A DNA stretch of 26,467 bases, from UHGV virus genome UHGV-0118441, one strand, 5' to 3'. Below are positions 3,088-20,227 of this stretch, piece after piece; position 1 is the stretch's first letter, and each line of letters starts with the position of its first letter. A model generated the notes under the pieces. It saw nothing but the letters and a program-made list of their open reading frames with translations. It did not search any database and was not told where the DNA came from. This DNA is from a virus. The position numbers and the translations under genes were made by a program.

Positions 3088-3597
3088 ATGTTTGATTACC
3101 AAGTTTCCAAACATCCACATTTTGATGAAGCCTGTCGTGCATTTGCACTGCGCCACAATCTGGTGCAACTGGCAGAACGTGCAGGCATGAATGTGCAGAT
3201 TCTGCGGAACAAGCTGAACCCAGCTCAGCCTCATTTATTAACCGCACCAGAAATCTGGCTGCTTACCGATCTGACTGAAGATTCAACGCTGGTAGATGGT
3301 TTTCTGGCACAGATTCATTGTCTGCCATGTGTACCGATTAATGAGGTGGCAAAAGAGAAACTGCCACATTACGTCATGAGTGCAACCGCAGAGATCGGGC
3401 GTGTTGCTGCAGGTGCGGTGTCTGGCGATGTAAAAACCTGTGCCGGTCGTCGTGATGCTATCAGCAGCATTAACTCTGTAACACGACTGATGGCGCTGGC
3501 GGCTGTTTCATTGCAGGCCCGTTTACAGGCTAATCCTGCGATGGCGAGTGCAGTTGATACCGTGACTGGCCTCGGTGCTTCATTTGGTTTGCTGTGA
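3088..3597 (+). CDS. cII: CII-like lysogeny-establishment activator (169 aa)
   Basis: ORF 3082..3597; ATG at 3088 with an AGAGG RBS. Sequence ([25 protein letters not shown]...) and length match my recollection of 186 CII. Confidence 0.75.
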
Positions 3598-4411: not shown

Positions 4412-4638
4412 TGGCTGATGCAATGGATCTCGTACAGCAGCGCGTTGAAGAAGAACGCCAACGCCATATCCGTGCTGCCCGTGCCAAAACGCCGGGCGTG
4501 TCCCGCGTGCTTTGCATTGAGTGTGAAGCGCCAATTCCGCCAGCACGCCGCCGTGCCATTCCGGGTGTGCAGCTTTGCATTACCTGTCAGGAAATCGCAG
4601 AGCTGAAAGGCAAACATTACAACGGAGGTGCTGTATGA
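4411..4638 (+). CDS. TraR/DksA-family C4 zinc-finger protein (75 aa)
   Basis: CIECEAPIPPARRRAIPGVQLCITC: four Cys in the C-x2-C-x17-C-x2-C spacing characteristic of TraR/DksA zinc fingers. AGGAG RBS. Confidence 0.7.
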   Translation: MADAMDLVQQRVEEERQRHIRAARAKTPGVSRVLCIECEAPIPPARRRAIPGVQLCITCQEIAELKGKHYNGGAV

Positions 4639-5492
4639 GCACCATCCTGAAATGGGCGGGAAATAAAACTGCCATAATGTCCGAACTAAAAAAACATCTT
4701 CCTGCTGGCCCGCGACTGGTTGAACCTTTCGCGGGTTCCTGTGCTGTGATGATGGAGACGGATTATCCCAGCTATCTGGTTGCGGATATTAATCCTGATT
4801 TAATCAACCTCTATAAAAAGGTTGCCGCTGATTGTGAATCGTTTATATCTCGCGCCAGAGTTTTATTTGAGATCGCAAACAGGGAGGTGGCTTATTACAA
4901 CATAAGGCAGGAGTTTAATTACTCAACTGAAATTACTGATTTCATGAAAGCGGTATATTTCCTGTATCTCAATCGTCACGGTTACCGTGGTTTATGTCGC
5001 TATAACAAGAGCGGGCATTTCAACATTCCCTACGGTAATTATAAAAATCCGTATTTCCCTGAAAAAGAAATTCGCGCATTTGCAGAAAAGGCCCAGCGAG
5101 CAACGTTTATCTGCGCCAGCTTTGATGAAACGCTGGCGATGTTGAAGGCGGGGGATGTGGTGTATTGCGATCCGCCGTATGACGGTACGTTTTCCGGCTA
5201 TCACACTGACGGCTTCACTGAAGATGACCAGTATCACCTGGCATCTGTTCTTGAACATCGGTCATCAGAAGGACATCCGGTCATTGTTTCTAACAGTGAC
5301 ACATCCCTGATCCGTTCGCTGTATCGCAATTTTACTCACCACTACATCAAGGCAAAACGCAGCATCGGTGTGGCAGCTGGCGAGGGTAAATCAGCAACAG
5401 AAATCATTGCTGTTTCCGGGCCGCGCTGCTGGGTGGGATTTGATTATTCGCGTGGCGTGGATAGTTCTGCCGTGTACGGAGTACGTGCATGA
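4635..5492 (+). CDS. Dam-type (D12 class) N6-adenine DNA methyltransferase
   Basis: ORF 4575..5492; ATG at 4635 with a GGAGGTG RBS ([12 protein letters not shown]...). Cofactor-binding motif FAGSCAV and catalytic DPPY ([10 protein letters not shown]). Start and stop both overlap neighbours as ATGA. Confidence 0.85.
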
Positions 5493-7903
5493 GTCATGCC
5501 GATATGAACAACTGCTGCGGCTTTAACGAAGCTGCCGCATCGTTCTCATGGAACAGCTCGAAAAAGGCCATTAACCCTTATCTGGACCCGGTGGAAGTTG
5601 CGCCGGTTTCTACGCTTTCAAACCTGATCACTCTGTACGCTGCCGATAACGAGCAGGAACAGCTGCGCCGTGAGGCGCTGAGTGATCAGGTCTGGGAGCG
5701 TTATTTCTTTAATGAATCCCGTGATCCTGTCCAGCGCGAAATGGAACAGGATAAGCTCATTAGTCGGGCAAAGCTGGCGCATGAGCAGCAGCGTTTTAAT
5801 CCGGATATGGTCATTCTGGCGGACGTCAACGCCCAGCCTTCCCATATCAGCAAGCCGCTGATGCAACGTATTGAATACTTCAGCAGCCTGGGCAGGCCAA
5901 AGGCTTATTCCCGCTATTTACGTGAGACGATTAAGCCATGTCTGGAACGACTGGAGCATGTACGCGACAGTCAGCTATCTGCATCTTTTCGCTTTATGGC
6001 AAGCCATGAAGGGCTGGACGGCCTGCTGATCCTGCCTGAAATGAGTCAGGATCAGGTGAAACGCCTGTCCACCCTGGTAGCTGCGCATATGAGTATGTGC
6101 CTTGATGCCGCTTGTGGCGATTTGTATGCCACCGATGACGTTAAGCCAGAAGAAATCCGCAATACATGGGAAAGGGTGGCAGCGGAAACCCTGCGTCTGG
6201 ATGTCATCCCGCCTGCGTTTGAGCAACTCCGTCGGAAAAGAAACCGCCGTAAACCCGTGCCCTATGAACTCATTCCGGGTTCGCTGGCGCGTATGTTGTG
6301 CGCCGACTGGTGGTATCGGAAATTATGGAAGATGCGTTGCGAATGGCGGGAAGAGCAGTTGCGTGCTGTCTGCCTTGTCAGCAAAAAAGCATCTCCCTAT
6401 GTCAGCTATGAAGCCGTGTTGCATAAACGTGAGCAGCGCCGTAAGTCGCTGGAGTTTTTCCGTTCTCATGAACTGGTGAACGAAGACGGCGACACGCTAG
6501 ACATGGAGGATGTGGTAAACGCCAGCAGCAGCAACCCTGCGCATCGCCGCAATGAGATGATGGCCTGTGTTAAAGGTCTGGAGCTTATCGCGGAAATGCG
6601 CGGTGACTGCGCCGTTTTCTACACCATCACCTGTCCGTCACGTTTCCATTCCACGCTAAATAACGGCAGGCCCAACCCGACCTGGACAAATGCGACGGTA
6701 AGACAAAGCAGCGATTATCTGGTCGGTATGTTTGCTGCATTTCGTAAGGCGATGCACAAAGCCGGGTTGCGCTGGTATGGCGTGCGGGTGGCTGAGCCGC
6801 ATCACGACGGCACAGTTCACTGGCACCTGTTGTGTTTCATGCGCAAAAAAGACCGCCGCGCCATTACAGCATTGTTGCGTAAGTTTGCTATCCGTGAAGA
6901 CCGCGAGGAGCTGGGCAATAACACGGGGCCGCGCTTTAAGTCTGAGCTGATTAACCCGCGCAAAGGAACGCCGACAAGCTACATAGCGAAATACATCAGT
7001 AAGAACATTGACGGGCGTGGTCTGGCTGGCGAGATCAGCAAGGAAACGGGTAAATCTCTGCGTGATAACGCTGAATACGTGAATGCCTGGGCGTCTTTGC
7101 ATCGTGTTCAGCAATTCCGCTTCTTTGGCATTCCGGGGCGTCAGGCTTACCGTGAACTGCGATTGCTGGCTGGTCAGGCGGTAAGGCAAAAGGGGGACAA
7201 AAAAGCAGGTGCGCCGGTACTGGATAACCCGCGCCTTGATGCCATCCTGGCTGCTGCTGATGCTGGTTGTTTTGCCACCTACATCATGAAGCAGGGCGGC
7301 GTACTGGTTCCCCGTAAATATCACCTCATCAGAACCGCTTATGAAATCAACGAAGAGCCGACCGCCTATGGCGATCACGGCATTCGTATTTATGGCATCT
7401 GGTCACCCATTGCAGAGGGCAAGATCTGCACTCATGCAGTGAAGTGGAAAATGGTTCGTAAAGCCGTTGACGTTCAGGAGGCGGCAGCCGACCAGGGCGC
7501 TTGCGCCCCTTGGACTCGTGGCAATAACTGTCCCCTTGCTGAAAATTTGAACCAACAGGAGAAAGATAAATCAGCTGATGGAGACACCAGAACGGACATT
7601 ACCCGCATGGATGACAAGGAGTTGCACGATTACCTGCACAGTATGAGCAAAAAAGAGCGCCGGGAACTGGCAGCAAGGTTACGCCAGGTGAAGCCGAAAA
7701 GGCGTAAAGACTACAAACAGCGAATTACAGATCATCAGCATCAGCAGCTCGTCTATGAACTGAAGTCCAGAGGATTTGATGGCAGCGAGAAAGAGGTCGA
7801 TTTACTCCTTCGCGGTGGCAGTATTCCGTCAGGAGCAGGCCTGCGTATTTTCTATCGGAACCAGCGTTTGCAGGAAGATGATAAGTGGCGGAACCTGTAT
7901 TAA
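5489..7903 (+). CDS. A: Replication initiation protein A (P2 gpA-family rolling-circle endonuclease), 804 aa
   Basis: Size and position; HUH-like metal-binding motif (VHWHLLCF) and paired active-site tyrosines (YIAKYISK) as in P2/186 A proteins. Confidence 0.9.
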
Positions 7904-7995: not shown

Positions 7996-8015
7996 TACTG
8001 TAAATATAAACAGTG
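7996..8015. promoter_or_regulatory. LexA (SOS) box TACTGTAAATATAAACAGTG
   Basis: Perfect CTGT-N8-ACAG with an AT-rich spacer, 42 bp upstream of the small ORF at 8057. A degenerate second copy may overlap at about 8013-8032. Confidence 0.6.
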
Positions 8016-8056
8016 GTTATGTATACAGTATTTCTTGTGGTGTTATAGGAGGAAAG

Positions 8057-8245
8057 ATGCAGGACTATTTTTTGGAGTCTTTGAAGCTCCAGCGCATTGA
8101 TTTTTTTCTTAAGCTTGTAGCGGCTAGTGAGTGTAGTGATGAAGAGAAAGGGCTGGCTCTGCAGTGGGTTTCTGAACTGACAGATGAACTCATGGCAAAA
8201 ATCAGAAGCCACGAATACAACCGCTCAATGGATGTCATCAGCTGA
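8057..8245 (+). CDS. Small SOS-controlled protein (62 aa); possible Tum-like antirepressor by position
   Basis: ORF 7955..8245; ATG at 8057 with an AGGAGG RBS, immediately downstream of the LexA box. No homology recognised; the antirepressor idea is by analogy with the 186 LexA-controlled tum operon. Confidence 0.45.
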   Translation: MQDYFLESLKLQRIDFFLKLVAASECSDEEKGLALQWVSELTDELMAKIRSHEYNRSMDVIS

Positions 8246-8255
8246 GGTGACTTTT

Positions 8256-8489
8256 ATGCGCATTGAAATAATGATCGATAAAGAGCAGAAGATTAGCCAG
8301 TCTACCCTGGACGCCCTTGAATCCGAGCTTTACCGCAATCTGCGCCCCCTGTATCCCAAAACGGTAATTCGCATTCGCAAAGGTAGCTCTAACGGTGTGG
8401 AACTAACCGGACTGCAACTGGATGAAGAAAGAAAACAAGTGATGAAAATTATGCAGAAGGTGTGGGAGGACGACAGCTGGCTGCATTAA
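8256..8489 (+). CDS. dinI: DinI-family protein (77 aa)
   Basis: ORF 8184..8489; ATG at 8256 with a GAGGTG RBS. MRIEIMIDKEQ...VMKIMQKVWEDDSWLH matches the DinI N-terminal MRIEV motif and acidic W-rich C-terminal helix. Confidence 0.8.
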   Translation: MRIEIMIDKEQKISQSTLDALESELYRNLRPLYPKTVIRIRKGSSNGVELTGLQLDEERKQVMKIMQKVWEDDSWLH

Positions 8490-8956: not shown

Positions 8957-9538
8957 ATGAGCGAAAGGAAAAGAATTGAAGATCAGTATCTTCTCTATCA
9001 TTTAACATGTATGGATAATCTACCTAGTATTTTAGATACAGGATTAAGATCTCGTGCATCAGTAAAAGGTGAGTTTGTTGATGTGGCCGACGGTGAAATA
9101 ATAACAGGTCGCGAAGCATTAAATTTGCAAACAATGGTTCCTTTTCATTTCTTTACTAAGAATCCATTTGATGGAAGAGTCCTGAAAGATCATAAGGAAA
9201 AATCATTTTGTATTATTTCGGTTTGTCGGGCATTTGCCAAAGAAAATGGTTGGAAAGTTATCCCTAAACATCCATTATCCACCAGTTCTTTTATAGACCT
9301 CTTAGATTATGAACAAGGAATGGCCCAAATTGACTGGGAGCTAATGAATATAAGGGATTATAAAAATGCAGAATGCAAATCTGTATGTATGGCTGAGTGT
9401 TTATCAAGTGTAACGGTCGAGCCGAAAAATTTCCATTGCATCTTTGTCAAAAATGATAACGAAAAAAAATATGTTGAAGGGTTGATAAAACAACAAGGAT
9501 TAAGTATATTGATAACGATCAACACTTATATGTTCTAA
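8957..9538 (+). CDS. darT: DarT (DUF4433) ssDNA ADP-ribosyltransferase toxin, 193 aa
   Basis: N-terminal LYHLTCMDNLPSIL, central VPFHFF and C-terminal DWELMNIRDY...MAECL segments match the DarT family as I recall it (Thermus DarT IYHITHIDNL..IL, PFYF, QAEFLV with catalytic Glu). Followed 4 nt later by a macrodomain gene. Confidence 0.75.
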   Translation: MSERKRIEDQYLLYHLTCMDNLPSILDTGLRSRASVKGEFVDVADGEIITGREALNLQTMVPFHFFTKNPFDGRVLKDHKEKSFCIISVCRAFAKENGWKVIPKHPLSTSSFIDLLDYEQGMAQIDWELMNIRDYKNAECKSVCMAECLSSVTVEPKNFHCIFVKNDNEKKYVEGLIKQQGLSILITINTYMF

Positions 9539-9542
9539 TTCT

Positions 9543-10514
9543 ATGATTAAGTATGCAAGCGGAAATCTTCTAAACTCTACATCGCAAGCTCTTGTGAATG
9601 CTGTAAACTGCCAAGGAGTCATGGGAAAGGGTATTGCTTTGGCTTTTAAAGAAACTTTTCCCTATAATTTCGAAGTTTATAAGAGAGCATGCGCCACTGG
9701 TACAATGAAAATTGGACAGGTTTTAATTGTAGAGGAAAAGGGAAAAATAATTGTAAACTTTCCCACTAAAGATAGTTGGAGAAAAAAATCAACATATGAT
9801 TTTATCTCGCAAGGCCTTGAATCTTTAGCAAAAATTATAGATGAAAAAAAAATTACATCAATATCAATACCACCTTTAGGCTGTGGTAATGGGGGCCTCG
9901 ATTGGAATAAGGTTGAGGCTCTTATTTTAAAAACTTTTCAAAATTTAGATAATGTTGATGTGGTAATTTATCCGCCTGCAACTAACAATCAACTTTCAAA
10001 AAATAAAAATGTTATTAATGCTAAGCATCTTTTGGTTCACTACGCCTATGGAAAATTAAAAGTTAAGCAAAAATATTCCCTTTATACAGTTTTTTATATT
10101 TGCGAATGTATTGAGAAAGCAAATCTTTTTTTATTCGATTTTAAACATGGTCGGCCATACTCTTCTGAGTTAGAAAATATTATGAAGGATATAGCAAACC
10201 TTAAAGTTGAGTTGCAAGGAGATTTTGATGCTTTTATTGAAGATTATATTAATACTCATCAATCCAAAGAGTTACAAACCGAGTTTGGTAAACTAATCTC
10301 AACTTTAAATCCAAGTATAAGTTTGCTCAATGCTCTTAAAAATAAGATTGATTATACAGATAGCGTACATGTGATCACGAGAATTGCTAAAGAAAAAGAT
10401 CATGGCTTGCATATTGACAATTTCAAAGAATATGAAAATATTGTGCAGCATTTAATTAAAAATGGATTGGTAATCGAAGATATTTTTAACGAACTAAAAA
10501 TAAAGGGAAGTTAG
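9543..10514 (+). CDS. darG: DarG antitoxin, N-terminal TARG1-like macrodomain (ADP-ribosyl hydrolase), 323 aa
   Basis: N-terminus GNLL...ALVNAVNCQGVMGKGIALAF and later PPLGCGNGGLDW are hallmark macrodomain motifs of DarG/TARG1. Translationally coupled to darT. Confidence 0.8.
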   Translation: MIKYASGNLLNSTSQALVNAVNCQGVMGKGIALAFKETFPYNFEVYKRACATGTMKIGQVLIVEEKGKIIVNFPTKDSWRKKSTYDFISQGLESLAKIIDEKKITSISIPPLGCGNGGLDWNKVEALILKTFQNLDNVDVVIYPPATNNQLSKNKNVINAKHLLVHYAYGKLKVKQKYSLYTVFYICECIEKANLFLFDFKHGRPYSSELENIMKDIANLKVELQGDFDAFIEDYINTHQSKELQTEFGKLISTLNPSISLLNALKNKIDYTDSVHVITRIAKEKDHGLHIDNFKEYENIVQHLIKNGLVIEDIFNELKIKGS

Positions 10515-11066
10515 TAGCGCTATTTTCAATTTTTTTGCTGAAATTGCGCATGCACACTCTCACGCATTATAGATGCGGCGTTAATCCCGCCAGGAGTGTT
10601 GTTTAATAAATTGAACTATTTCTGCATTGAAGGATCAACTTACGCATTCGCTGACAACGCAGGCACTCTCCTGGCTAAGCAGAAATTCAGAGTAACCAAC
10701 TGGCACTTTTACAACAATTTTCTTATCAGTTGCGGCTCCATGACTTTCTGGTGGGATAACAAAGCAATTAAGGCGTGGTATTGTAAGTATCCCGCATAAT
10801 CATGCTAGTAACATTTGTCCCCCATGTAACCTAATTAAGGCAACTTCCGCTCTTCGCTCACAGTGAACCTCCATGTTTGTAAACCCGTATATTTCGTTTT
10901 TTAAGTGGTCATTCAGATACGGATTTTCACTTCTCTTGGCTGTGCATGACTATGCTGCATGAAATTGCATGATCGTTTGAGGATCGTTTTTGCTGAGGCC
11001 CCCCAGAACTGGCGGGCTTTCGCTTATGTCATGCAGGTGCATGAAAATCACTGCATAAAGCGGGCA

Positions 11067-11085
11067 GGCGTGGCGGGGATACGAG
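11067..11085. other. Candidate cos cohesive-end sequence (GGCGTGGCGGGGATACGAG), P2/186-type
   Basis: First 13 nt match my recollection of the P2/186 19-nt cohesive end (GGCG[A/T]GGCGGGGAAAGCA[C/T]), followed by CGCGCGCT as at the P2 left end. Position between gene A and portal Q fits P2 synteny. From memory, not a database match. Confidence 0.55.
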
Positions 11086-11164
11086 CGCGCGCTAACTAAA
11101 AAGCTAGAGAATCTGTGAATTTTTCAATAGTATTATTCTTAGTTAACTAAAGGAGAATCTTATC

Positions 11165-12229
11165 ATGGCAGAAAACGGACCTCGTGAAGACTTGGCGAAG
11201 CTGGTGTCCCATAAACTATTGGAAAGATTTAAGTGGAAGCAACACGGTCCGACCGATCATGATTTTCCGTGTACTGAACAAGAATTACACAAGCCAGCGG
11301 AAAAAACGCAAGACCACACACATCCAGTTGATATTGTCTTTCATTATAAAGATCCTTACTTAAATAAAATTGTTTATCTAAATACTGATTTGAAAAGTTA
11401 TTCAAAAGGGTCTTTAAATTCTAAAATGGTTGAAAATGCTTTAGATTCCTTAGCAAAAACTATTCATTGTGCGCAGAATAGTCAGGTATGGAAAAATCGC
11501 TATGAGACAACCATGTCTAAAAGTGAAGTACGAGGGTTACTTTTTGTATATAATCATGATAATGACTATAAGCATAATTTCTATGACTATTTTTATCCTC
11601 CTAAACCCAAAAAAGGGAAAAGACCTGCGGCAGTTAATTTAGACAGAGTAAATGTATCTGAAAATCAGCAAATACATATAATTGAGCCACGAACTATTAG
11701 TTATCTTATGTCTGTTGTTGCTGATATGAACGAAATGATTGCGGAAAATAAATTCCCGCGTGATGATTATGGGTTCTATTATCCTCAATTAATACTTCAT
11801 AAGGTTGTGACTGCAGAAGAATATCTTCCAGCTACAGTGGAAACTCTAACATCCCCCTACATGATAATTAAACATGGTCCAGTAATAGAATATAATAGAG
11901 CTAAAAAGGAGGACGAGCTGGTTTATCCTGAAGGGTTTATTGTTTATTACAACCGCTCCGGTAAAACAGACTTAGAGTTTAATTATTTATTAGATACTCT
12001 AGCTAACTACCAGATATTAAACTCAAAAAATAATATTAGAATTAGAGTAGCATGTATTGATAAAAGTGAGCACATACGGACTAATTTTATAAAAGCTATA
12101 GAAAAATTTTCATATCAGTGGGGATATGATGAATCTATGAAGGAAAAATTATTATCTATTGAGCTATATATTGTGCCTCTATCTCGAGAGCAATATTTAA
12201 CAGAAGAAAGATCATGGGATGTTAAATAA
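11165..12229 (+). CDS. Unknown protein, 354 aa, first gene of AT-rich cargo operon; possible PD-(D/E)xK-like nuclease motif
   Basis: ATG with an AAGGAGA RBS 8 nt upstream; AT-rich codon usage. HPVD-IVFH ... KIVYLNTDLK is compatible with a PD-x(n)-D-x-K signature. No other motif recognised. Confidence 0.6.
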   Translation: MAENGPREDLAKLVSHKLLERFKWKQHGPTDHDFPCTEQELHKPAEKTQDHTHPVDIVFHYKDPYLNKIVYLNTDLKSYSKGSLNSKMVENALDSLAKTIHCAQNSQVWKNRYETTMSKSEVRGLLFVYNHDNDYKHNFYDYFYPPKPKKGKRPAAVNLDRVNVSENQQIHIIEPRTISYLMSVVADMNEMIAENKFPRDDYGFYYPQLILHKVVTAEEYLPATVETLTSPYMIIKHGPVIEYNRAKKEDELVYPEGFIVYYNRSGKTDLEFNYLLDTLANYQILNSKNNIRIRVACIDKSEHIRTNFIKAIEKFSYQWGYDESMKEKLLSIELYIVPLSREQYLTEERSWDVK

Positions 12230-13305
12230 TGAGTGAAATACACAGTGTTACAGACAAAGCTTTATACGAGGCTTTATGCCAATCACGTGTCACTGATAAT
12301 GATATGGTGGAATTGTTTTTATCCCGTGGAATTTTGGTGTCAAAAAAAACTGAGCGTAAGCAACTAGCAAAAAATTTCTCAAAGCTCACTCATGATTATT
12401 ATTTGCATCAGAAAATTTCTGGAATATTTGGAGGTTTTTTAAGGCGAGAGAAATCTACGGCTATAGTTATTAAGAATAATATTGATAAGCCACTACTTGT
12501 TAAGGCTGCTAATAAGCTTAAAGATCAGCTGGAAAGCGAAGATGATATATGTCATGTAATCAGTGATAAAGATTCTATTAAAATTAGCATTACATACTTA
12601 TCAACCAATTTTGGTAAAAGTGAATTTAACCAAGTAGAGAAGAAAACTGCTGTTTTTGAAATCGAGTCCCTTTCGGATGGTTTTTCAATTCGTAGGCCTG
12701 ATAGTGAACAAGCTGAGATTTATAATAAAAAACTACTAAGTATTATCGAACAGGTTATACAAAAGGAAAAAGATATAGAAGCAACGACTTTAGATACAGA
12801 AGAAATCAACCTCGCGAACATCGATGACGCAGATAAAAGAACAGAATTTTTTAAGCGGCTCATCAATGGGTTGGATGGATATGTTTTAGATGATGTTACG
12901 GATGTTTATATCTACCATCCTAAACCTGCTGTCATGGAGGAGGAAGATGGGGATTCTGAAACAGGAATACATATTAGCAAAGCATCTTTGAAAGGAGAGG
13001 GGGTGCTTAAATCTGAAGAGTTGAATTCTTTGTATGATAGAGGGTTTTATATTTGGAAAATAAGATGGAGAATAAAGGATAAATCTACTACTCCAGATCT
13101 TTATGATTTTGAAGCTCAGTTTAGTGATCCTTTAGAGTTTAAGAGCTTTTCATATATTTCTAGAGGGGTGAGGAAATATAAAGGTGCCGGAGAATATAAT
13201 AAAAATCCGAGCCAATTACCGGATGATGAAGAATATCATTTTAAAAGACTTATTGAAAAAACGGCGCGTTCAATTATAATGGATATTAATAAAGAGTATG
13301 AGTGA
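12229..13305 (+). CDS. Unknown protein, 358 aa, second gene of cargo operon
   Basis: ATG overlaps the stop of the previous gene (TAATG). Highly charged, Lys/Glu/Asp-rich; no Walker A, HEPN, HTH or other motif recognised. Confidence 0.6.
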   Translation: MSEIHSVTDKALYEALCQSRVTDNDMVELFLSRGILVSKKTERKQLAKNFSKLTHDYYLHQKISGIFGGFLRREKSTAIVIKNNIDKPLLVKAANKLKDQLESEDDICHVISDKDSIKISITYLSTNFGKSEFNQVEKKTAVFEIESLSDGFSIRRPDSEQAEIYNKKLLSIIEQVIQKEKDIEATTLDTEEINLANIDDADKRTEFFKRLINGLDGYVLDDVTDVYIYHPKPAVMEEEDGDSETGIHISKASLKGEGVLKSEELNSLYDRGFYIWKIRWRIKDKSTTPDLYDFEAQFSDPLEFKSFSYISRGVRKYKGAGEYNKNPSQLPDDEEYHFKRLIEKTARSIIMDINKEYE

Positions 13306-13313
13306 GATAACAA

Positions 13314-14018
13314 ATGAAAACACTGGATAAAATTAAGTGGAGCAGAGTGAAGTTATCAATAACCTTCTCTGAACTAATTGATTATTTTAAACGTAATTCT
13401 TATGATGAAAGTAAAGGTTATGGTTATACTTTTGTGAATTTTACTGAACATGAAGTTTCCGCTTCTTATGTTGAAAAGTCATTGCGTACAGAAGTTATTG
13501 TATCGCCCGCGGGAGATGAGATAGAACAAGATTTTTTAGAGTATGAAACCATAAAATTTGCATTAAAGCCCGTATCTAAAAATCTCTCTTTATTGGCTAT
13601 TTTTAATCCCCCTAAATCTATAAAGAAATTGACGGATAGACTTAGTGTAGATTTCAATTATAGGGTTGGATTTGGTTCAATTACCTTAAATTTAAAGGAG
13701 TATATAAATTATCTAAGTTTACAGCATTCAATAAGTCTATTACATATTGATAAAATTAAAGTTAGCAATGTTGTGTTAAATGGGAACTCCAAGGCCTCGG
13801 TTGAGATAACTTCCACAAAAAATGCATTGTTAGAGCTAGAAAGTATTTTTACTAACAAAAAATATAATATAGATAAAGTTAGGTTGCATTGTTTGATTTA
13901 CGGGGAACCTTCTTTTGTTGAGCTTTCAAAAAGCGCTTTTATTAATTCAGATTCTAATCATCTGGATTTTTACTCCGACTTCCTCATTCAGCAATTATCT
14001 AATGATGAATTTCGTTAA
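13314..14018 (+). CDS. Unknown protein, 234 aa, third gene of cargo operon
   Basis: ATG 8 nt after the previous stop; same strand and AT-rich composition. No recognisable motif. Confidence 0.55.
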   Translation: MKTLDKIKWSRVKLSITFSELIDYFKRNSYDESKGYGYTFVNFTEHEVSASYVEKSLRTEVIVSPAGDEIEQDFLEYETIKFALKPVSKNLSLLAIFNPPKSIKKLTDRLSVDFNYRVGFGSITLNLKEYINYLSLQHSISLLHIDKIKVSNVVLNGNSKASVEITSTKNALLELESIFTNKKYNIDKVRLHCLIYGEPSFVELSKSAFINSDSNHLDFYSDFLIQQLSNDEFR

Positions 14019-14020
14019 TA

Positions 14021-14040
14021 AAGGCGGGTATGCCCGCCTT
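14021..14040. terminator. GC-rich hairpin (AAGGCGGG-tatg-CCCGCCTT) between the cargo operon and the 3' end of portal gene Q
   Basis: 8-bp perfect stem, 4-nt loop, 2 nt after the gene-3 stop; T-rich only on the minus strand, so it may terminate the Q-P transcript or act in both directions. Confidence 0.45.
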
Positions 14041-14124
14041 GCTGGCGATATGTTGAGCTACGCTCAATTGACTTTTCTATTTATATGGTTATTAATTGAT
14101 TTGTTTATAATATCTGAATTTTTA

Positions 14125-15162
14125 TTAAGTTGCCTTTTCAAGCTTGTAAGGGATAAAACGTATAATCTCGTGGCCGAGCCAGCAGTTAAGCTCCATTATT
14201 AGCTTCTGTAGTGGCAATAATTCATTCCTTACAAATACATTACTTGCCTTCTCCACATCCCCAAACCCCCCAACATTATTCGGCATAATCCCCATCATTT
14301 GTGGCGGCACACGATGTGCCGCCATCATGTCATCCCGGCTCACGTTCTTGATGTTCAGAAATTCATCCTTTGCCGCGACTTCTGACAACGGGATAATCTG
14401 AAGACCATCCTTTTTGCCGTTAGGTGAGTACATAAACAGGTTGCGGAAGTTGCCTGGACCTTTGGCGCTTTTCATTGCGTTGCGGAGGTTGTTCACATCC
14501 TCCTGGTTCTGCGCAGCATCGGTCATGTACATGATGAAGCCAGCATGACTGCCGTTAATGTAATACTTTCGGCGGAACAGCGTGGCGGACTCATTGAGCA
14601 GGGCGGACGGAATGGCAGAAAGATAGCCGGGCAGGCCGTAGATCTCCTGGTTAATGTCCGGTTCCATCAGATGAAAAATGCTGCCTTTCGTGAACTGATA
14701 CGGCTGGGTTGTCATACCGTATTGCACAAACCAGTAGGTATCCAGGTCTAACCCGCGTCGGGTGTATTTTGCCAGAGCAGGCTCAAGGGCGATAACTTCA
14801 CCGAAGCGGTTCGTGCGTTTCTCCAGGTAGGCGTTACCAAATACCAGATAGTCCTGCACAAAACGTGAAAAAGCCTGCTGGCTGAGCAGCGGGTGGGGGA
14901 TGTAGGTACTGGTCAGAATGTTGCATTTCACCGCAATTGGTGAACTGTGATGCACGGCGGCGCGGAAGGTGCGCGCCAGTCCGTCAAAGCTTACTGGCGG
15001 CTCATACCAGCGATCTGTCTGTACGCATTCCACATAGTCCAGTAGTTCGCGGCGGTCCAGAACAGGAACGGGATCACCGAAGCTGAATGCTTCGGCTGTA
15101 GTTTGACTTTTATGCTGGATCTGGTTCGTCGACGCAGCGCGGTTCTTCTTACTCTTTCCCAT
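14125..15162 (-). CDS. Q: Portal protein (P2 gpQ family)
   Basis: ORF 14125..15165; about 345 aa from the ATG at 15162. Size, synteny (downstream of and overlapping the large terminase gene as ATGA) and orientation relative to cos match P2 Q. Confidence 0.85.
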   Translation of the reverse strand: MGKSKKNRAASTNQIQHKSQTTAEAFSFGDPVPVLDRRELLDYVECVQTDRWYEPPVSFDGLARTFRAAVHHSSPIAVKCNILTSTYIPHPLLSQQAFSRFVQDYLVFGNAYLEKRTNRFGEVIALEPALAKYTRRGLDLDTYWFVQYGMTTQPYQFTKGSIFHLMEPDINQEIYGLPGYLSAIPSALLNESATLFRRKYYINGSHAGFIMYMTDAAQNQEDVNNLRNAMKSAKGPGNFRNLFMYSPNGKKDGLQIIPLSEVAAKDEFLNIKNVSRDDMMAAHRVPPQMMGIMPNNVGGFGDVEKASNVFVRNELLPLQKLIMELNCWLGHEIIRFIPYKLEKAT

Positions 15163-16928
15163 CAAAAAATCTCCACAATATTACTGGTATTGGCGGACTC
15201 GCCCTGCAGTGGTTCGTTAAACAGTGCGTGCATTGTTGCCCAGGCCAGATCGGCGTGGCTGGCTTCTTCGCTGCGGCTGGCTTCATAGGTCGGGCGGTTG
15301 CCACTGGCGGTGGTTGCGCGACGGATTGCCATGAATGACTGCGCAATGTCGGTGTGCCCGGCGTCAAACTCCAGACGGCGGTGGCTGATAATGTCGTAGG
15401 CCTTGAGTACCAGGGCGTTTTTAACATTGGGGTTATAGACAAACTCCCGGACGGCTGGAAAGAACGCTTTCACGTTCTCGTAAACCCCGTGACCGACGCC
15501 GGTCGAGTCAATACCGATGTACGTCACGTTGTACTGTTCGGTCAGTTTTTTGATGGCATCAGCCTGGGCGCGGAAGTCCATCCCGCGCCACTGGTGACGT
15601 TCAAGAATGCGGAACTTGCCGCCCGGTACGGCTGGCGGTGCCACCACCACGCATCCGGCGCTGTCGCCGTTCTGCGTACCTTTTGCCGGGTCATAACCAA
15701 TCCATACTTCGCGCCAGCCAAACGGGCGCAGCGCCAGTGCATGGAAGTCGGTCCAGACTTCCCAGCTGTCCACCATGCACGCCTGCAGCTCGCTGAGCGG
15801 GAACACGGACGCGAGATCGTCCACGAACTCACACATCAGCAGGTTCTGGTATTCGTCCGGGCTGTACTCCATGCGCAACTGGTCGAGGTCGAACAGGTTA
15901 CAGCCGCCGTGCACCGCATCTTCCACGGTGACTATCTGGCGGTATTGCCCGTCTGCGCACAGCAGGCCGGGGGCCAGATTGTTATGGGACAGGTCGATGT
16001 CCACCTTGTCGGCTTTGTTGCGCCCACGGTTGAACAGCGCACCGGACCAGAACGGATAAGCACTGTGGGTCAGGCTGGATGGCGTGGAAAAATAAGTTTG
16101 TCGCCATTTTTTGTGAATAGCCATACCGGAAGCCACTTTGCGCAGCTCCTGAAATTTCGGTATCCAGAAATATTCATCCAGATACAGGTTGCCGTGATAA
16201 CTCTGGGCCGTGCGGGCATTGGTGCCGAGGAAGTAAAGTGTGGCCCCGTTAGGAAGCACCATCGGATCGCCTTTCAGCTCCACCTCCACTTCTTTGGCGA
16301 AGTCGATGATGTACTGCTTAAAGACGTGAGCCTGTGCCTTACTGGCAGAAAGGAAAATCTGGTTACGTCCGGTAAGCAGGGCGTCAATCAGGGCTTCACG
16401 GGCAAAGTAAAAGGTCGCACCGATCTGGCGTGACTTCAGCAGGTTGCGGATGCGGTTGGTTTTTCCGGCTTCCCACCAGTGGCGCTGGTAGTTGAACATG
16501 GAGGAATGGAAGATTTCTTCCAGCTTCTCAATCTGTTCATCGGTGAAAACGTTCTTTTCCGGCTGACGACGCGGGCCTTTGTTGCGGTTGGCGACGTTAG
16601 GGTTTAAGTCGGCTTCGTTGCCGCCATTGTTAAACTTGCCGATCCGCGCGTGGCGCTCCGACTGGCGCGCCAGCAGATCAATTTCTTTGAAATCTTTCCC
16701 TTCTTTGTGCTCCTTCATAATGAGCTGGCAGTAACGTGCGGCGGTGGTGAGCTGCATCTGATCCAGCGGCCCGTAGTCACCCCACTTGTCGCGTTTTTTC
16801 CAGCTGTGAACGGTTGCAACTTTCTCGCCCAGCATTTCAGCAATGCGGGCGACGCGGTATCCCTGAAAGTACAGCAGCATGGCCTGCCGACGGGGATCGA
16901 GATCTGCGGGTGTCAGTGTGGTGTTCAT
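15162..16928 (-). CDS. P: Terminase large (ATPase) subunit (P2 gpP family), 588 aa
   Basis: Size and divergent arrangement from the capsid operon as in P2 P/O. The antisense 359-aa ORF on the plus strand is treated as spurious. Confidence 0.85.
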   Translation of the reverse strand: MNTTLTPADLDPRRQAMLLYFQGYRVARIAEMLGEKVATVHSWKKRDKWGDYGPLDQMQLTTAARYCQLIMKEHKEGKDFKEIDLLARQSERHARIGKFNNGGNEADLNPNVANRNKGPRRQPEKNVFTDEQIEKLEEIFHSSMFNYQRHWWEAGKTNRIRNLLKSRQIGATFYFAREALIDALLTGRNQIFLSASKAQAHVFKQYIIDFAKEVEVELKGDPMVLPNGATLYFLGTNARTAQSYHGNLYLDEYFWIPKFQELRKVASGMAIHKKWRQTYFSTPSSLTHSAYPFWSGALFNRGRNKADKVDIDLSHNNLAPGLLCADGQYRQIVTVEDAVHGGCNLFDLDQLRMEYSPDEYQNLLMCEFVDDLASVFPLSELQACMVDSWEVWTDFHALALRPFGWREVWIGYDPAKGTQNGDSAGCVVVAPPAVPGGKFRILERHQWRGMDFRAQADAIKKLTEQYNVTYIGIDSTGVGHGVYENVKAFFPAVREFVYNPNVKNALVLKAYDIISHRRLEFDAGHTDIAQSFMAIRRATTASGNRPTYEASRSEEASHADLAWATMHALFNEPLQGESANTSNIVEIF

Positions 16929-17070: not shown

Positions 17071-17904
17071 ATGACAGTGAAAGCAAAGCGTTTTCGCATC
17101 GGGGTGGAAGGTGCCACTACCGACGGACGCGAAATCCAGCGTGAATGGCTGGAACAGATGGCAGCCAGCTACAACCCGGCGGTGTATACCGCGCTGATTA
17201 ACCTTGAGCACATCAAGTCTTATCTGCCGGACAGCACCTTTAACCGCTACGGCAAGGTGACGGCGCTGTTTGCTGAAGAAATAACGGAAGGTCCGCTGGC
17301 GGGCAAGATGGCACTGTATGCCGACGTTGAGCCAACGGAGTCCCTGGTGGAACTGGTGAAAAAAGGCCAGAAATTATTCACCTCTATGGAAGTCAGCCCG
17401 AAGTTTGCTGATACGGGCAAAGCCTACCTGGTCGGCCTGGCTGCCACTGATGATCCCGCCAGTCTGGGTACGGAAATGCTGACATTCAGCGCCAGTGCAG
17501 CCCATAACCCGCTGGCAAACCGCAAGCAGAATCCCGCCAATCTTTTTACCGCTGCAGAGGAAACGGTGATCGAACTGGAAGAAATCCAGGAGGACAAGCC
17601 GTCCCTGTTTGCCCGTGTCACGGCGCTGTTTACCAAAAAAGAGCAGTCCGACGATGCCCGGTTCTCTGATGTGCATAAGGCCGTGGAGCTGGTCGCCACT
17701 GAGCAGCAGAACCTGAGCGCACGCACCGAAAAATCCCTGTCTGAGCAGGAAGAACGTCTGTCTGAGCTGGAGACTGCCCTGCAGGCACAGCAGACCGCCT
17801 TTAACGAACTGGTGAATAAGCTGAGTCATGAAGACAGCCGCCAGGACTACCGCCAGCGTGCAACAGGCGGTAACGCCCCCGCTGACACTCTGACCAATTG
17901 CTGA
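17071..17904 (+). CDS. O: Capsid scaffolding protein (P2 gpO family), 277 aa
   Basis: Position and size; first gene of the rightward late operon, GGAG RBS. Confidence 0.8.
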   Translation: MTVKAKRFRIGVEGATTDGREIQREWLEQMAASYNPAVYTALINLEHIKSYLPDSTFNRYGKVTALFAEEITEGPLAGKMALYADVEPTESLVELVKKGQKLFTSMEVSPKFADTGKAYLVGLAATDDPASLGTEMLTFSASAAHNPLANRKQNPANLFTAAEETVIELEEIQEDKPSLFARVTALFTKKEQSDDARFSDVHKAVELVATEQQNLSARTEKSLSEQEERLSELETALQAQQTAFNELVNKLSHEDSRQDYRQRATGGNAPADTLTNC

Positions 17905-17920
17905 TGGAGCACAAAACCTG

Positions 17921-19015
17921 ATGAAGAAGAATACCCGCTTTGCTTTTAACGCTTACCTGCAGCAACTGGCACGTCTGAACGGTGTGGCAGTTGAAGAACT
18001 GTCCAGCAAGTTCACTGTGGAGCCGTCTGTGCAGCAGACGCTGGAAGACCAGATCCAGCAGTCCGCCGCTTTCCTGACGCTGATTAACGTCACGCCAGTG
18101 ACTGAGCAGTCCGGTCAGCTGCTGGGGCTGGGAGTTGGCAGCACCATTGCCGGAACCACTGACACCACCGCGAAAGAGCGTGAACCTGTCGATCCGACGC
18201 TGATGGTCGATGTGGAATATAAATGCGAGCAGACCAACTTTGACACGGTGCTGACCTACGCGAAGCTGGACCTGTGGGCGAAGTTTCAGGATTTCCAGGT
18301 GCGCATCCGTGACGCCATCGTGAAACGTCAGGCTCTGGACCGCATCATGATCGGCTTTAACGGCGTGAAGCGTGCGAAAACCTCCAACCGTAGCGAAAAC
18401 CCGCTGCTGCAGGATGTGAACAAAGGCTGGCTGCAGAAAATCCGTGAAGATGCACCGGATCACGTCATGGGCAGCACCACCACGGGCGGTGAAACCACAC
18501 CGGGTGCGGTGAAAGTCGGGAAAGGTGGCGAATATGCCAACCTGGACGCCGTGGTGATGGATGCCGTCAATGAGCTTATCGATGTGGTCTACCAGGACGA
18601 TGACGATCTGGTGGTGATTTGCGGTCGTGAACTGCTGTCTGACAAGTATTTCCCGCTGGTCAACAAAGAGCAGGAAAACAGTGAAAAACTGGCTGCCGAT
18701 ATGATCATCAGTCAGAAACGCATGGGCGGCCTGCAGGCGGTGCGTGCGCCGTTCTTCCCGGCTAATGCCCTGCTGATCACCCGTCTGGATAACCTGTCCA
18801 TCTACTGGCAGGAGGACACCCGCCGCCGTTCTGTTATCGACAACCCGAAACGTGACCGGATTGAGAACTTCGAATCCGTCAACGAAGCGTATGTGATTGA
18901 AGACTACCGCTGCGCGGCCTTGGTCGAAAACATCACTATCGGTGACTTCAGCGAGCCAGCTGCGGTGCAGTCTGCGCCTGTGGAAGAACCCGCCGAAACA
19001 GAAACTGAGGAGTAA
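17921..19015 (+). CDS. N: Major capsid protein (P2 gpN family), 364 aa
   Basis: Position and size. The 631-aa antisense ORF 17801..19696 is treated as spurious. Confidence 0.85.
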   Translation: MKKNTRFAFNAYLQQLARLNGVAVEELSSKFTVEPSVQQTLEDQIQQSAAFLTLINVTPVTEQSGQLLGLGVGSTIAGTTDTTAKEREPVDPTLMVDVEYKCEQTNFDTVLTYAKLDLWAKFQDFQVRIRDAIVKRQALDRIMIGFNGVKRAKTSNRSENPLLQDVNKGWLQKIREDAPDHVMGSTTTGGETTPGAVKVGKGGEYANLDAVVMDAVNELIDVVYQDDDDLVVICGRELLSDKYFPLVNKEQENSEKLAADMIISQKRMGGLQAVRAPFFPANALLITRLDNLSIYWQEDTRRRSVIDNPKRDRIENFESVNEAYVIEDYRCAALVENITIGDFSEPAAVQSAPVEEPAETETEE

Positions 19016-19018
19016 CGC

Positions 19019-19669
19019 ATGAGCCTGAGTCCCGCACGGCAGCACCGCCTGCGCATTCAGGCCGAACAGGCCGCCCGGGAGGGCGGCAGTGTTCGCCATG
19101 CGTCCGGCTATGACCTGATGCTGCTGCAGCTGGCAGAAGACCGCCGCCGCCTTAAGGGTATCCAGTCCACCGTGAAAAAGGCGGCAATCAAGGTGGAGCT
19201 TCTGCCGAAGTATGCCGCCTGGGCGGAGGGCGTGCTGGCTGCCGGAGGTGCGCAGCAGGATGACGTGCTGATGTACGTGATGCTGTGGCGTATCGACGCC
19301 GGTGATTATGCCGGTGCGCTGGAAATCGGGCGTCATGCGCTGCGCCATGGCTGGGTGATGCCGCTGGGCAACCGTAACGTGCAGACCGTTCTGGCGGAAG
19401 AAATGGCGGATGCCGCACAAAGCGCCCTGCTGGCCGCTACCGGTTTTAATGCCGATCTGCTCCTGCAGACGCTGGAGCTGACTACCGATCTGGATATGCC
19501 GGACCAGTCCCGGGCACGCCTGCACAAAGCCATCGGCGCGGTACTGACCGAAAGCAACCCGGCTTCTGCCCTTAATCACCTTACCCATGCGCTGCAACTC
19601 GATCCCCGCTGCGGTGTGAAAAAAGAAAAGCAGCAGCTGGAGCGCAGATTGCGCAGTGACAGCCGCTAA
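19019..19669 (+). CDS. M: Terminase small subunit (P2 gpM family), 216 aa
   Basis: Position after the capsid gene and size. Confidence 0.8.
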   Translation: MSLSPARQHRLRIQAEQAAREGGSVRHASGYDLMLLQLAEDRRRLKGIQSTVKKAAIKVELLPKYAAWAEGVLAAGGAQQDDVLMYVMLWRIDAGDYAGALEIGRHALRHGWVMPLGNRNVQTVLAEEMADAAQSALLAATGFNADLLLQTLELTTDLDMPDQSRARLHKAIGAVLTESNPASALNHLTHALQLDPRCGVKKEKQQLERRLRSDSR

Positions 19670-19762
19670 CGAACGTGCCCCGCGCACGGGCGGCACGGGG
19701 TGGCGAAAGGCATTGCTACATCAAAACCCCGTCCACCGCCCACTATTTCAGGAGAAAGCCGC

Positions 19763-20227
19763 ATGCAGTTTATTGCGCCAGAACAGGCACCGGAACAGGC
19801 GGACGTTATTAAAAATACGCCGTTCTGGCCTGATGTGGACCTGTCGGAATTTCGCAGTGTGATGCGCACTGACGGCACGGTGACGCAGCCCCGTCTGAGG
19901 CAGGTTGCGCTGACAGCCATTTCTGAAGTTAACGCTGAGCTGTACGACTTCCGCAACCGTCAGCAGATGCTGGGCTACCGGGATCTGGCTGACGTGCCGG
20001 CGGAAATGCTGGACGGCAAAAGCGAGCGCATCCAGCACTACCTCAACGCCGTGTATTGCTGGGCGCGCGCCGTGCTCAATGAGCGTTACCAGGATTATGA
20101 CGCCACGGCGTCCGGGGTAAAGCGAGGGGAGGAACTGGCGGAGGCCAGCGGCGATCTGTGGCGTGATGCCCGATGGGCTATCAGCCGGGTGCAGGATGCA
20201 CCGCACTGTACGGTGGAGCTTATCTGA
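19763..20227 (+). CDS. L: Head completion/stabilisation protein (P2 gpL family)
   Basis: ORF 19700..20227; ATG at 19763 has a strong AGGAGA RBS and the upstream start is GTG. Start is uncertain (154 vs 175 aa). Confidence 0.7.
   Translation: MQFIAPEQAPEQADVIKNTPFWPDVDLSEFRSVMRTDGTVTQPRLRQVALTAISEVNAELYDFRNRQQMLGYRDLADVPAEMLDGKSERIQHYLNAVYCWARAVLNERYQDYDATASGVKRGEELAEASGDLWRDARWAISRVQDAPHCTVELI

Follow-up and report, generated by a model that had tools for sequence, protein, structure and literature searches.

A predicted P2-family cos site between two accessory gene slots in a 26.5-kb prophage sequence

Phage P2 and its satellite P4 share a conserved core of about 55 bp at their cohesive ends (Ziermann and Calendar 1990, as summarized in PMC9594776 and PMC5694545), and the cos region is the only region that P4 has in common with P2 (PMC9122126). 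Accessory genes of P2-family prophages have been described at several places: in the TO region at the right end (PMC3091744), in the gap between cosL and Q, which is presented as an insertion hotspot in a passage of PMC5694545 citing Dodd and Egan 1996 and Nakayama 1999, and between gpA and gpQ, a cos-proximal defence hotspot (Rousset et al. 2022, PMC9122126; Moura de Sousa et al. 2026, PMC13586616). A three-gene system from this setting, 'hp + hp + hp' (3HP; pFR109), was cloned from a P2-like prophage of E. coli E1114 and protects against P1 (Rousset et al. 2022, PMC9122126).

The sequence considered here, hereafter the window, is a single stretch of viral DNA of 26,467 nucleotides. Its initial annotation placed a candidate cos site at 11067–11085, from a likeness to P2 and 186 and from synteny. 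A sequence check found the proposed 19-mer, GGCGTGGCGGGGATACGAG, at exactly these positions on the plus strand, directly followed by CGCGCGCT at 11086–11093; it is the sole exact match to GGCGWGGCGGGGAWA in a pattern search of the window, the other matches carrying two to three mismatches. Alignment to the annotated genome termini confirmed the likeness: 15 of 19 bases are the same as in the cohesive end of 186 (GGCGTGGCGGGGAAAGCAT), with the first 13 identical, and 14 of 19 as in that of P2. The last six bases read TACGAG in the window, AAGCAT in 186 and AAGCAC in P2, and the 19-mer fits the P2-family form GGCG(A/T)GGCGGGG followed by seven variable bases. An identical 19-mer forms bases 1–19 of Salmonella phage SEN8 (NC_047753), where it is annotated as a 'putative cos site' and where the record is linearised. 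Gene calls and Pfam likewise upheld the syntenic position, with replication gene A (5489–7903; Phage_GPA, E = 2.5e-127) on one side and portal gene Q (14125–15165) on the complementary strand on the other; the large terminase gene P adjoins Q.

The 19-mer lies within a conserved block of 151 bp (10942–11092), composed of 125 bp on what would become the right-end side of the mature DNA, the 19-mer and a further 7 bp. Conservation was profiled base by base over 130 distinct sequences, drawn from 160 fetched loci encoding portal relatives (80 contigs, one genome per species, and 80 from IMG/VR), in 135 of which both cos and Q could be located. Across the 130 prophage loci conservation climbs sharply at 10942 and collapses beyond 11092, with unrelated sequence outside; the block is approximately 90% conserved overall, and most columns inside it reach at least 90%. 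The 33-bp cosN of the window is the commonest variant (68 of 130 loci). In blastn searches the block region matched 82–90 P2-like phage records, with E-values down to 4e-58, and the block was found in 1251 of 5426 complete E. coli genomes. Given these E-values and the conservation profile, chance resemblance is rejected. The larger part of the block (10942–11059, plus strand), bounded by the conservation edge, is assigned as the accessory, cosB-like part of cos and presumed terminase-binding region. It is rich in TGCAT repeats, with TGCATGA at 10943, 10956, 10966 and 11038, TGCAT at 11052 and an inverted copy at 11031. The 125-bp part holds six TGCAT motifs against 0.28 expected, an approximately 20-fold enrichment, and four of the five plus-strand TGCATGA copies in the window fall inside the cos block.

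For comparison, both termini of P2 (NC_001895) and 186 (NC_001317), which carry annotated cohesive ends, were retrieved together with the complete genome of P4, and the circularised junctions were aligned with the window. All four elements have one layout in common at cos: three TGCAT repeats at approximately −125 to −95, in equivalent positions in all four, a further TGCAT with (T/G)AAAA(C/T)C at −30 to −15, AAAG(C/T)GGGC(A/G) at −10 to −1, the 19-mer, and (C/T)GCGCGC at +1 to +7. Over the 55-bp core the window is identical to 186 at 45 positions, to P4 at 42 and to P2 at 41, while P2 and P4 agree at 52 of 55, which reproduces the published P2/P4 core (PMC9594776, PMC5694545). Like the window site, the cos sites of 186 and P2 follow the accessory genes on the gene A side and precede the minus-strand portal gene Q/W, in the same orientation; they share the 19-nt 5′ ends (predicted for the window), the GCGSGCR flanks and the asymmetric extent, with approximately 125 bp on the right-end side and 7 bp on the left-end side. 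They differ in the spacing between the 19-mer and the portal stop codon, 3039 bp in the window against 176 bp for 186 and 167 bp for P2. The block is 85–93% identical to the putative cos sites of the Felsduovirus type, found in SEN8, Fels-2, SopEPhi, RE2010 and P2-like phages of Klebsiella and Yersinia. SEN8 resembles the window in having the same 19-mer and in carrying genes, two in its case, between cos and Q, whereas the Felsduovirus-type phages carry other cargo on both sides of cos.

Taken together, this likeness makes it very probable that 10942–11092 represents the cos of a 186/Fels-2-like phage within the P2 family (Peduoviridae). The mechanism proposed here follows from homology with the sites of P2, 186 and P4: the terminase encoded nearby (small subunit gpM, large subunit gpP) would recognise the accessory region of approximately 118 bp with its TGCATGA repeats (10942–11059), and would introduce nicks at 11066/11067 in the top strand and at 11085/11086 in the bottom strand. 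The predicted 19-nt 5′ cohesive end, the cosN core at 11067–11085 (plus strand), rests on the match to the 186 and P2 ends and on the SEN8 label; it is flanked by GCGGGCA (11060–11066), 5′ of the predicted top-strand nick and at least 90% conserved, and by CGCGCGC (11086–11092), which flanks the predicted bottom-strand nick and comprises the last conserved cos bases before the collapse. Each nick would thereby follow a GCGSGCR heptamer, GCGGGCA on the top strand and GCGCGCG on the bottom, which agree at five of seven bases; the same pattern lies beside both nicks in P2, 186 and P4. Read most simply, the few conserved bases to the right of the 19-mer belong to a nicking site with two-fold symmetry. 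The predicted products of cleavage are 19-nt 5′ cohesive ends. The exact cut positions are placed by alignment, and the 19-mer departs from 186 at four of its last six bases. Among phages with the exact window 19-mer we found no experimental determination of the ends, the SEN8 label being only 'putative'. Contig ends, sought as a proxy for virion ends, did not coincide with the 19-mer in any of the truncated loci fetched; the Cartapus record ends approximately 32 bp upstream of it and is uninformative on virion ends.

The genes required for packaging accompany the site. The portal gene Q (14125–15165, minus strand; Pfam Phage_portal) is accompanied by the large terminase gene P (15162–16928, minus strand; Terminase_6N, Terminase_6C and Terminase_5), and the span 17071–20227 on the plus strand encodes the gpO scaffold (Phage_GPO), the gpN capsid protein (Phage_cap_P2), the gpM small terminase (19019–19669; Phage_term_smal, 1.7e-40) and the gpL head completion protein (Phage_GPL). 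All six are intact, and so are Int, a 186-type CI, CII, Dam and A. The Dam gene, encoding a D12-class methyltransferase (4575–5492), immediately precedes gene A, an order also seen in related E. coli prophages. Between Q and Hp3, the last gene of the right-hand operon described below, a GC-rich hairpin at 14021–14040 occupies the position of tQ in P2 and is terminator-like on both strands, with predicted folding energies of −20.4 kcal/mol (z = −3.9) on the plus strand and −15.4 kcal/mol (z = −3.75) on the minus strand; a consensus terminator scan did not flag it. The only other weak cos match nearby (14029–14043, minus strand, three mismatches), considered as a second cos beside Q and rejected, is this terminator-like hairpin.

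A true cos homologue could nonetheless be a relic, in a prophage that is defective or whose cos has been inactivated and that no longer packages DNA. The window covers just 26.5 kb of the element, so a defect elsewhere is conceivable; the window also departs from the consensus at two highly conserved columns, 11002 in a hairpin stem and 11048, and an IS5 remnant lies beside cos. Against this, the window carries the consensus base at 100 of the 102 columns conserved at 90% or more, its cosN is the commonest variant, the 11002 variant occurs in other loci as well, and Int, CI, CII, A, Q, P, O, N, M and L are all full length, which makes a relic quite unlikely. Very improbable indeed is a second alternative, in which the block serves chiefly in transcription, for example as a terminator or as a promoter between operons, or gives rise to a small RNA, the likeness of the 19-mer to cos being incidental. 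The block does contain a conserved GC-rich inverted repeat followed by a T-run (10998–11021, plus strand), with family consensus GCCCGCCAG/CTGGCGGGC and then TTTT; its stem pairs are kept in 80–97% of the 130 loci, the stem being mostly invariant within the clade and hence uninformative on covariation, and the window copy, which has one C·C mismatch (11002/11013), folds as RNA at −17.2 kcal/mol (z = −2.66). This repeat may be a terminator, shielding cos from read-through for example, or a protein-binding palindrome, but it accounts for only approximately 24 of the 151 conserved bases, and no Rfam family matched anywhere in the window. The 19-mer, moreover, aligns with experimentally annotated cohesive ends, and the block is the only region in common with the P4 satellite, which ties it to packaging. 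Inverted repeats of different sequence stand at the equivalent place in P4 and 186.

Turning to the genes beside the predicted cos site, the initial annotation had noted defence cargo on both flanks, and PADLOC and Pfam agree, with DarT and DarG to the left and a three-gene system to the right. The right-hand operon, which that annotation took to be unknown, can be named: its proteins match the PADLOC models Hp1 (11165–12229, plus strand; 3.2e-62), Hp2 (12229–13305, plus strand; 1.5e-40) and Hp3 (13314–14018, plus strand; 3.1e-14) and are collinear homologs of the validated pFR109 proteins, at 37, 29 and 25% identity (BLASTP E = 6e-64, 4e-43 and 6e-17, respectively). Judged by homology, the operon is a divergent member of the known and validated 3HP family; the demonstrated anti-phage activity is that of the E1114 version (PMC9122126). 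In RefSeq, a first gene 99.6% identical to Hp1 is named a PD-(D/E)XK nuclease domain protein. The cloned DNA of pFR109 carries the cos variant of the window in reverse complement, so that both 3HP operons adjoin the same cos variant; the E1114 type lies to the left of cos on the minus strand, whereas the window type lies to the right on the plus strand. The two arrangements are mirror images in a comparison of loci L274, L234 and L099 with the window, L085, L086, L031, L171, L184, L229, L249 and L270: the E1114 type is on the left (minus), the window type and a third type are on the right (plus), and Hp1 is always adjacent to cos. No promoter above the threshold of a consensus scan was found in the gap between cos and Hp1 in the window.

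On the gene A side of cos, the left slot opens with a conserved segment (7996–8489, plus strand) that resembles the LexA-controlled p95-tum SOS operon in the annotation of 186. It comprises a LexA-box-like site, TACTGTAAATATAAACAGT (7998–8013, plus strand), which is the only exact CTGT-N8-ACAG in the window, a small ORF of 62 amino acids downstream of it (8057–8245, plus strand) and a DinI/Tum-like gene (8256–8489, plus strand; DinI Pfam E = 1.2e-22); the latter two are also annotated as a pair in E. coli prophages. Given the LexA-box-like site and the p95-tum-like arrangement, the prophage is probably SOS-inducible. The segment is followed by genes for DarT (8957–9538, plus strand; PADLOC 1.7e-36, Pfam DarT) and DarG (9543–10514, plus strand; PADLOC 2.8e-80, Pfam Macro), in which a DarT ADP-ribosyltransferase adjoins a macrodomain DarG, as in DarTG systems; identical genes are annotated in RefSeq. 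An IS5/IS1182 transposase remnant lies between DarG and cos, at approximately 10671–10778 (plus strand; coordinates taken from locus L288), and is an incomplete pseudogene in a 100% identical stretch of E. coli S40. Cleavage of the P2 and 186 kind would yield virion DNA in which the sequence would begin with GGCGTGGCGGGGATACGAG, continue through the 3HP operon, Q and P, and end with the DinI/Tum-like gene, DarT, DarG, the IS remnant and the accessory region; the three-gene operon would thus stand at one end and DarTG at the other, as the initial annotation had supposed.

Cargo on both sides of cos did not prove special. The gap between cos and the portal gene has a median of 1684 bp in the 135 related loci and exceeds 500 bp in 123 of them, so that two-sided cargo is usual in the clade of the window and the arrangement is ordinary; both the hotspot and the cosL-Q site are, besides, published. 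The right slot is occupied by DprA in E. coli E2348/69. Across 87 types of right-slot cargo, the longest 150 ORFs hit numerous PADLOC models, among them retron reverse transcriptases, AriA and PDC-S06. Clustering of cargo in portal-anchored loci gave 87 right-slot and 51 left-slot clusters, in 97 distinct combinations among 106 loci. Elsewhere the right cargo of the window is found beside different left cargoes, and its left cargo beside different right cargoes. In complete E. coli genomes, the segment 10942–14200 (cos, 3HP and Q) is matched at 99.4–99.6% in five, and the segment from 8900 to approximately 11093 (DarTG and cos, ending between 11093 and 11108) at 99.1–100% in ten; the DarTG and 3HP cassettes of the window occur together in none of 5426, each being found with other partners. 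Since the cassettes are found separately and never both, the combination in the window is a recombinant one, and the homology breakpoints coincide with the edges of the cos island.

These data show cos to be a fixed, conserved island that splits the gpA-gpQ hotspot into two independently assorting slots. The published hotspot and the window are alike in locus, in kind of cargo (DarTG and 3HP) and in rapid swapping; PMC9122126 and PMC13586616 delimit a single hotspot by its core genes, whereas here the non-coding cos island divides it. The split is a refinement of a known hotspot and does not imply a new system. The cos assignment of the initial annotation is well supported by homology and its interpretation partly right, the biology is already known, and the understanding of P2-family packaging and of prophage-borne defence is unchanged. 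The value of the result is practical: the predicted packaging boundaries of the prophage are fixed, the formerly 'unknown' operon is placed in a validated defence family, and searches for cargo in P2-like prophages can be anchored precisely on the 151-bp cos island.

The orientation of the cargo bears on what its placement might mean. In the right slot, which corresponds to 11093–14124 of the window, 144 of 150 ORFs (96%; loci L005–L164) point away from cos toward Q, and in the left slot strands are mixed (63 plus versus 31 minus). One reading would have the left end of the virion DNA, with the 3HP operon, enter a new cell first, the operon being placed there for immediate expression. Packaging in lambda starts from the cosB side, where terminase binds, and the opposite end is believed to exit first (PMC10287942); the accessory region of the window is on the DarTG side, so by this analogy the 3HP end would be the last in, and the orientation of the right-slot ORFs would suit such a role. 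The analogy is weak, however, since the P2-family terminase uses circular monomers (PMC2231350), and the rule of last in, first out is disputed even in lambda (PMC10287942); a search of the available literature for the P2 end that is tail-proximal or packaged first yielded nothing usable. There is also no consensus promoter between cos and Hp1, and the defence genes of the hotspot are active from the prophage (PMC9122126). A simpler explanation of the orientation bias would be insulation from leftward read-through of the Q-P late operon, and entry of the 3HP end first for immediate expression is possible but doubtful. A broader proposal, that the placement of cargo relative to cos is functional and goes beyond a by-product of recombination, for example through cos-centred capture or inversion or through a position effect of the DNA end, draws on the 96% of ORFs oriented away from cos and on the mirror-image 3HP operons with Hp1 at cos; we regard it as unlikely. 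Were the placement functional, the cargo might be expressed from the entering linear end, or coupled to cos cleavage, to name two examples.

A corresponding position is used for cargo in the satellite. The cos of P4 has the same layout as that of the window, with a P2-type 19-mer and without structural genes, and its gop-beta-cII hotspot (L165, 1–2540) starts immediately beyond cosL, on the side of cos that in the window holds the 3HP slot; the P4 satellite hotspot thus matches the cos-to-portal slot of its helper in position. P4-like satellites with the cos variant of the window were not encountered among the 119 IMG/VR loci listed, of which 112 are P2-like and seven too short to classify. 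Finally, one locus from the same database (L232, IMGVR_UViG_3300011853_000021) carries two exact copies of the cos core in opposite orientation, at 3441–3472 and 6697–6728, approximately 3.2 kb apart, which could represent adjacent elements or an assembly artefact.
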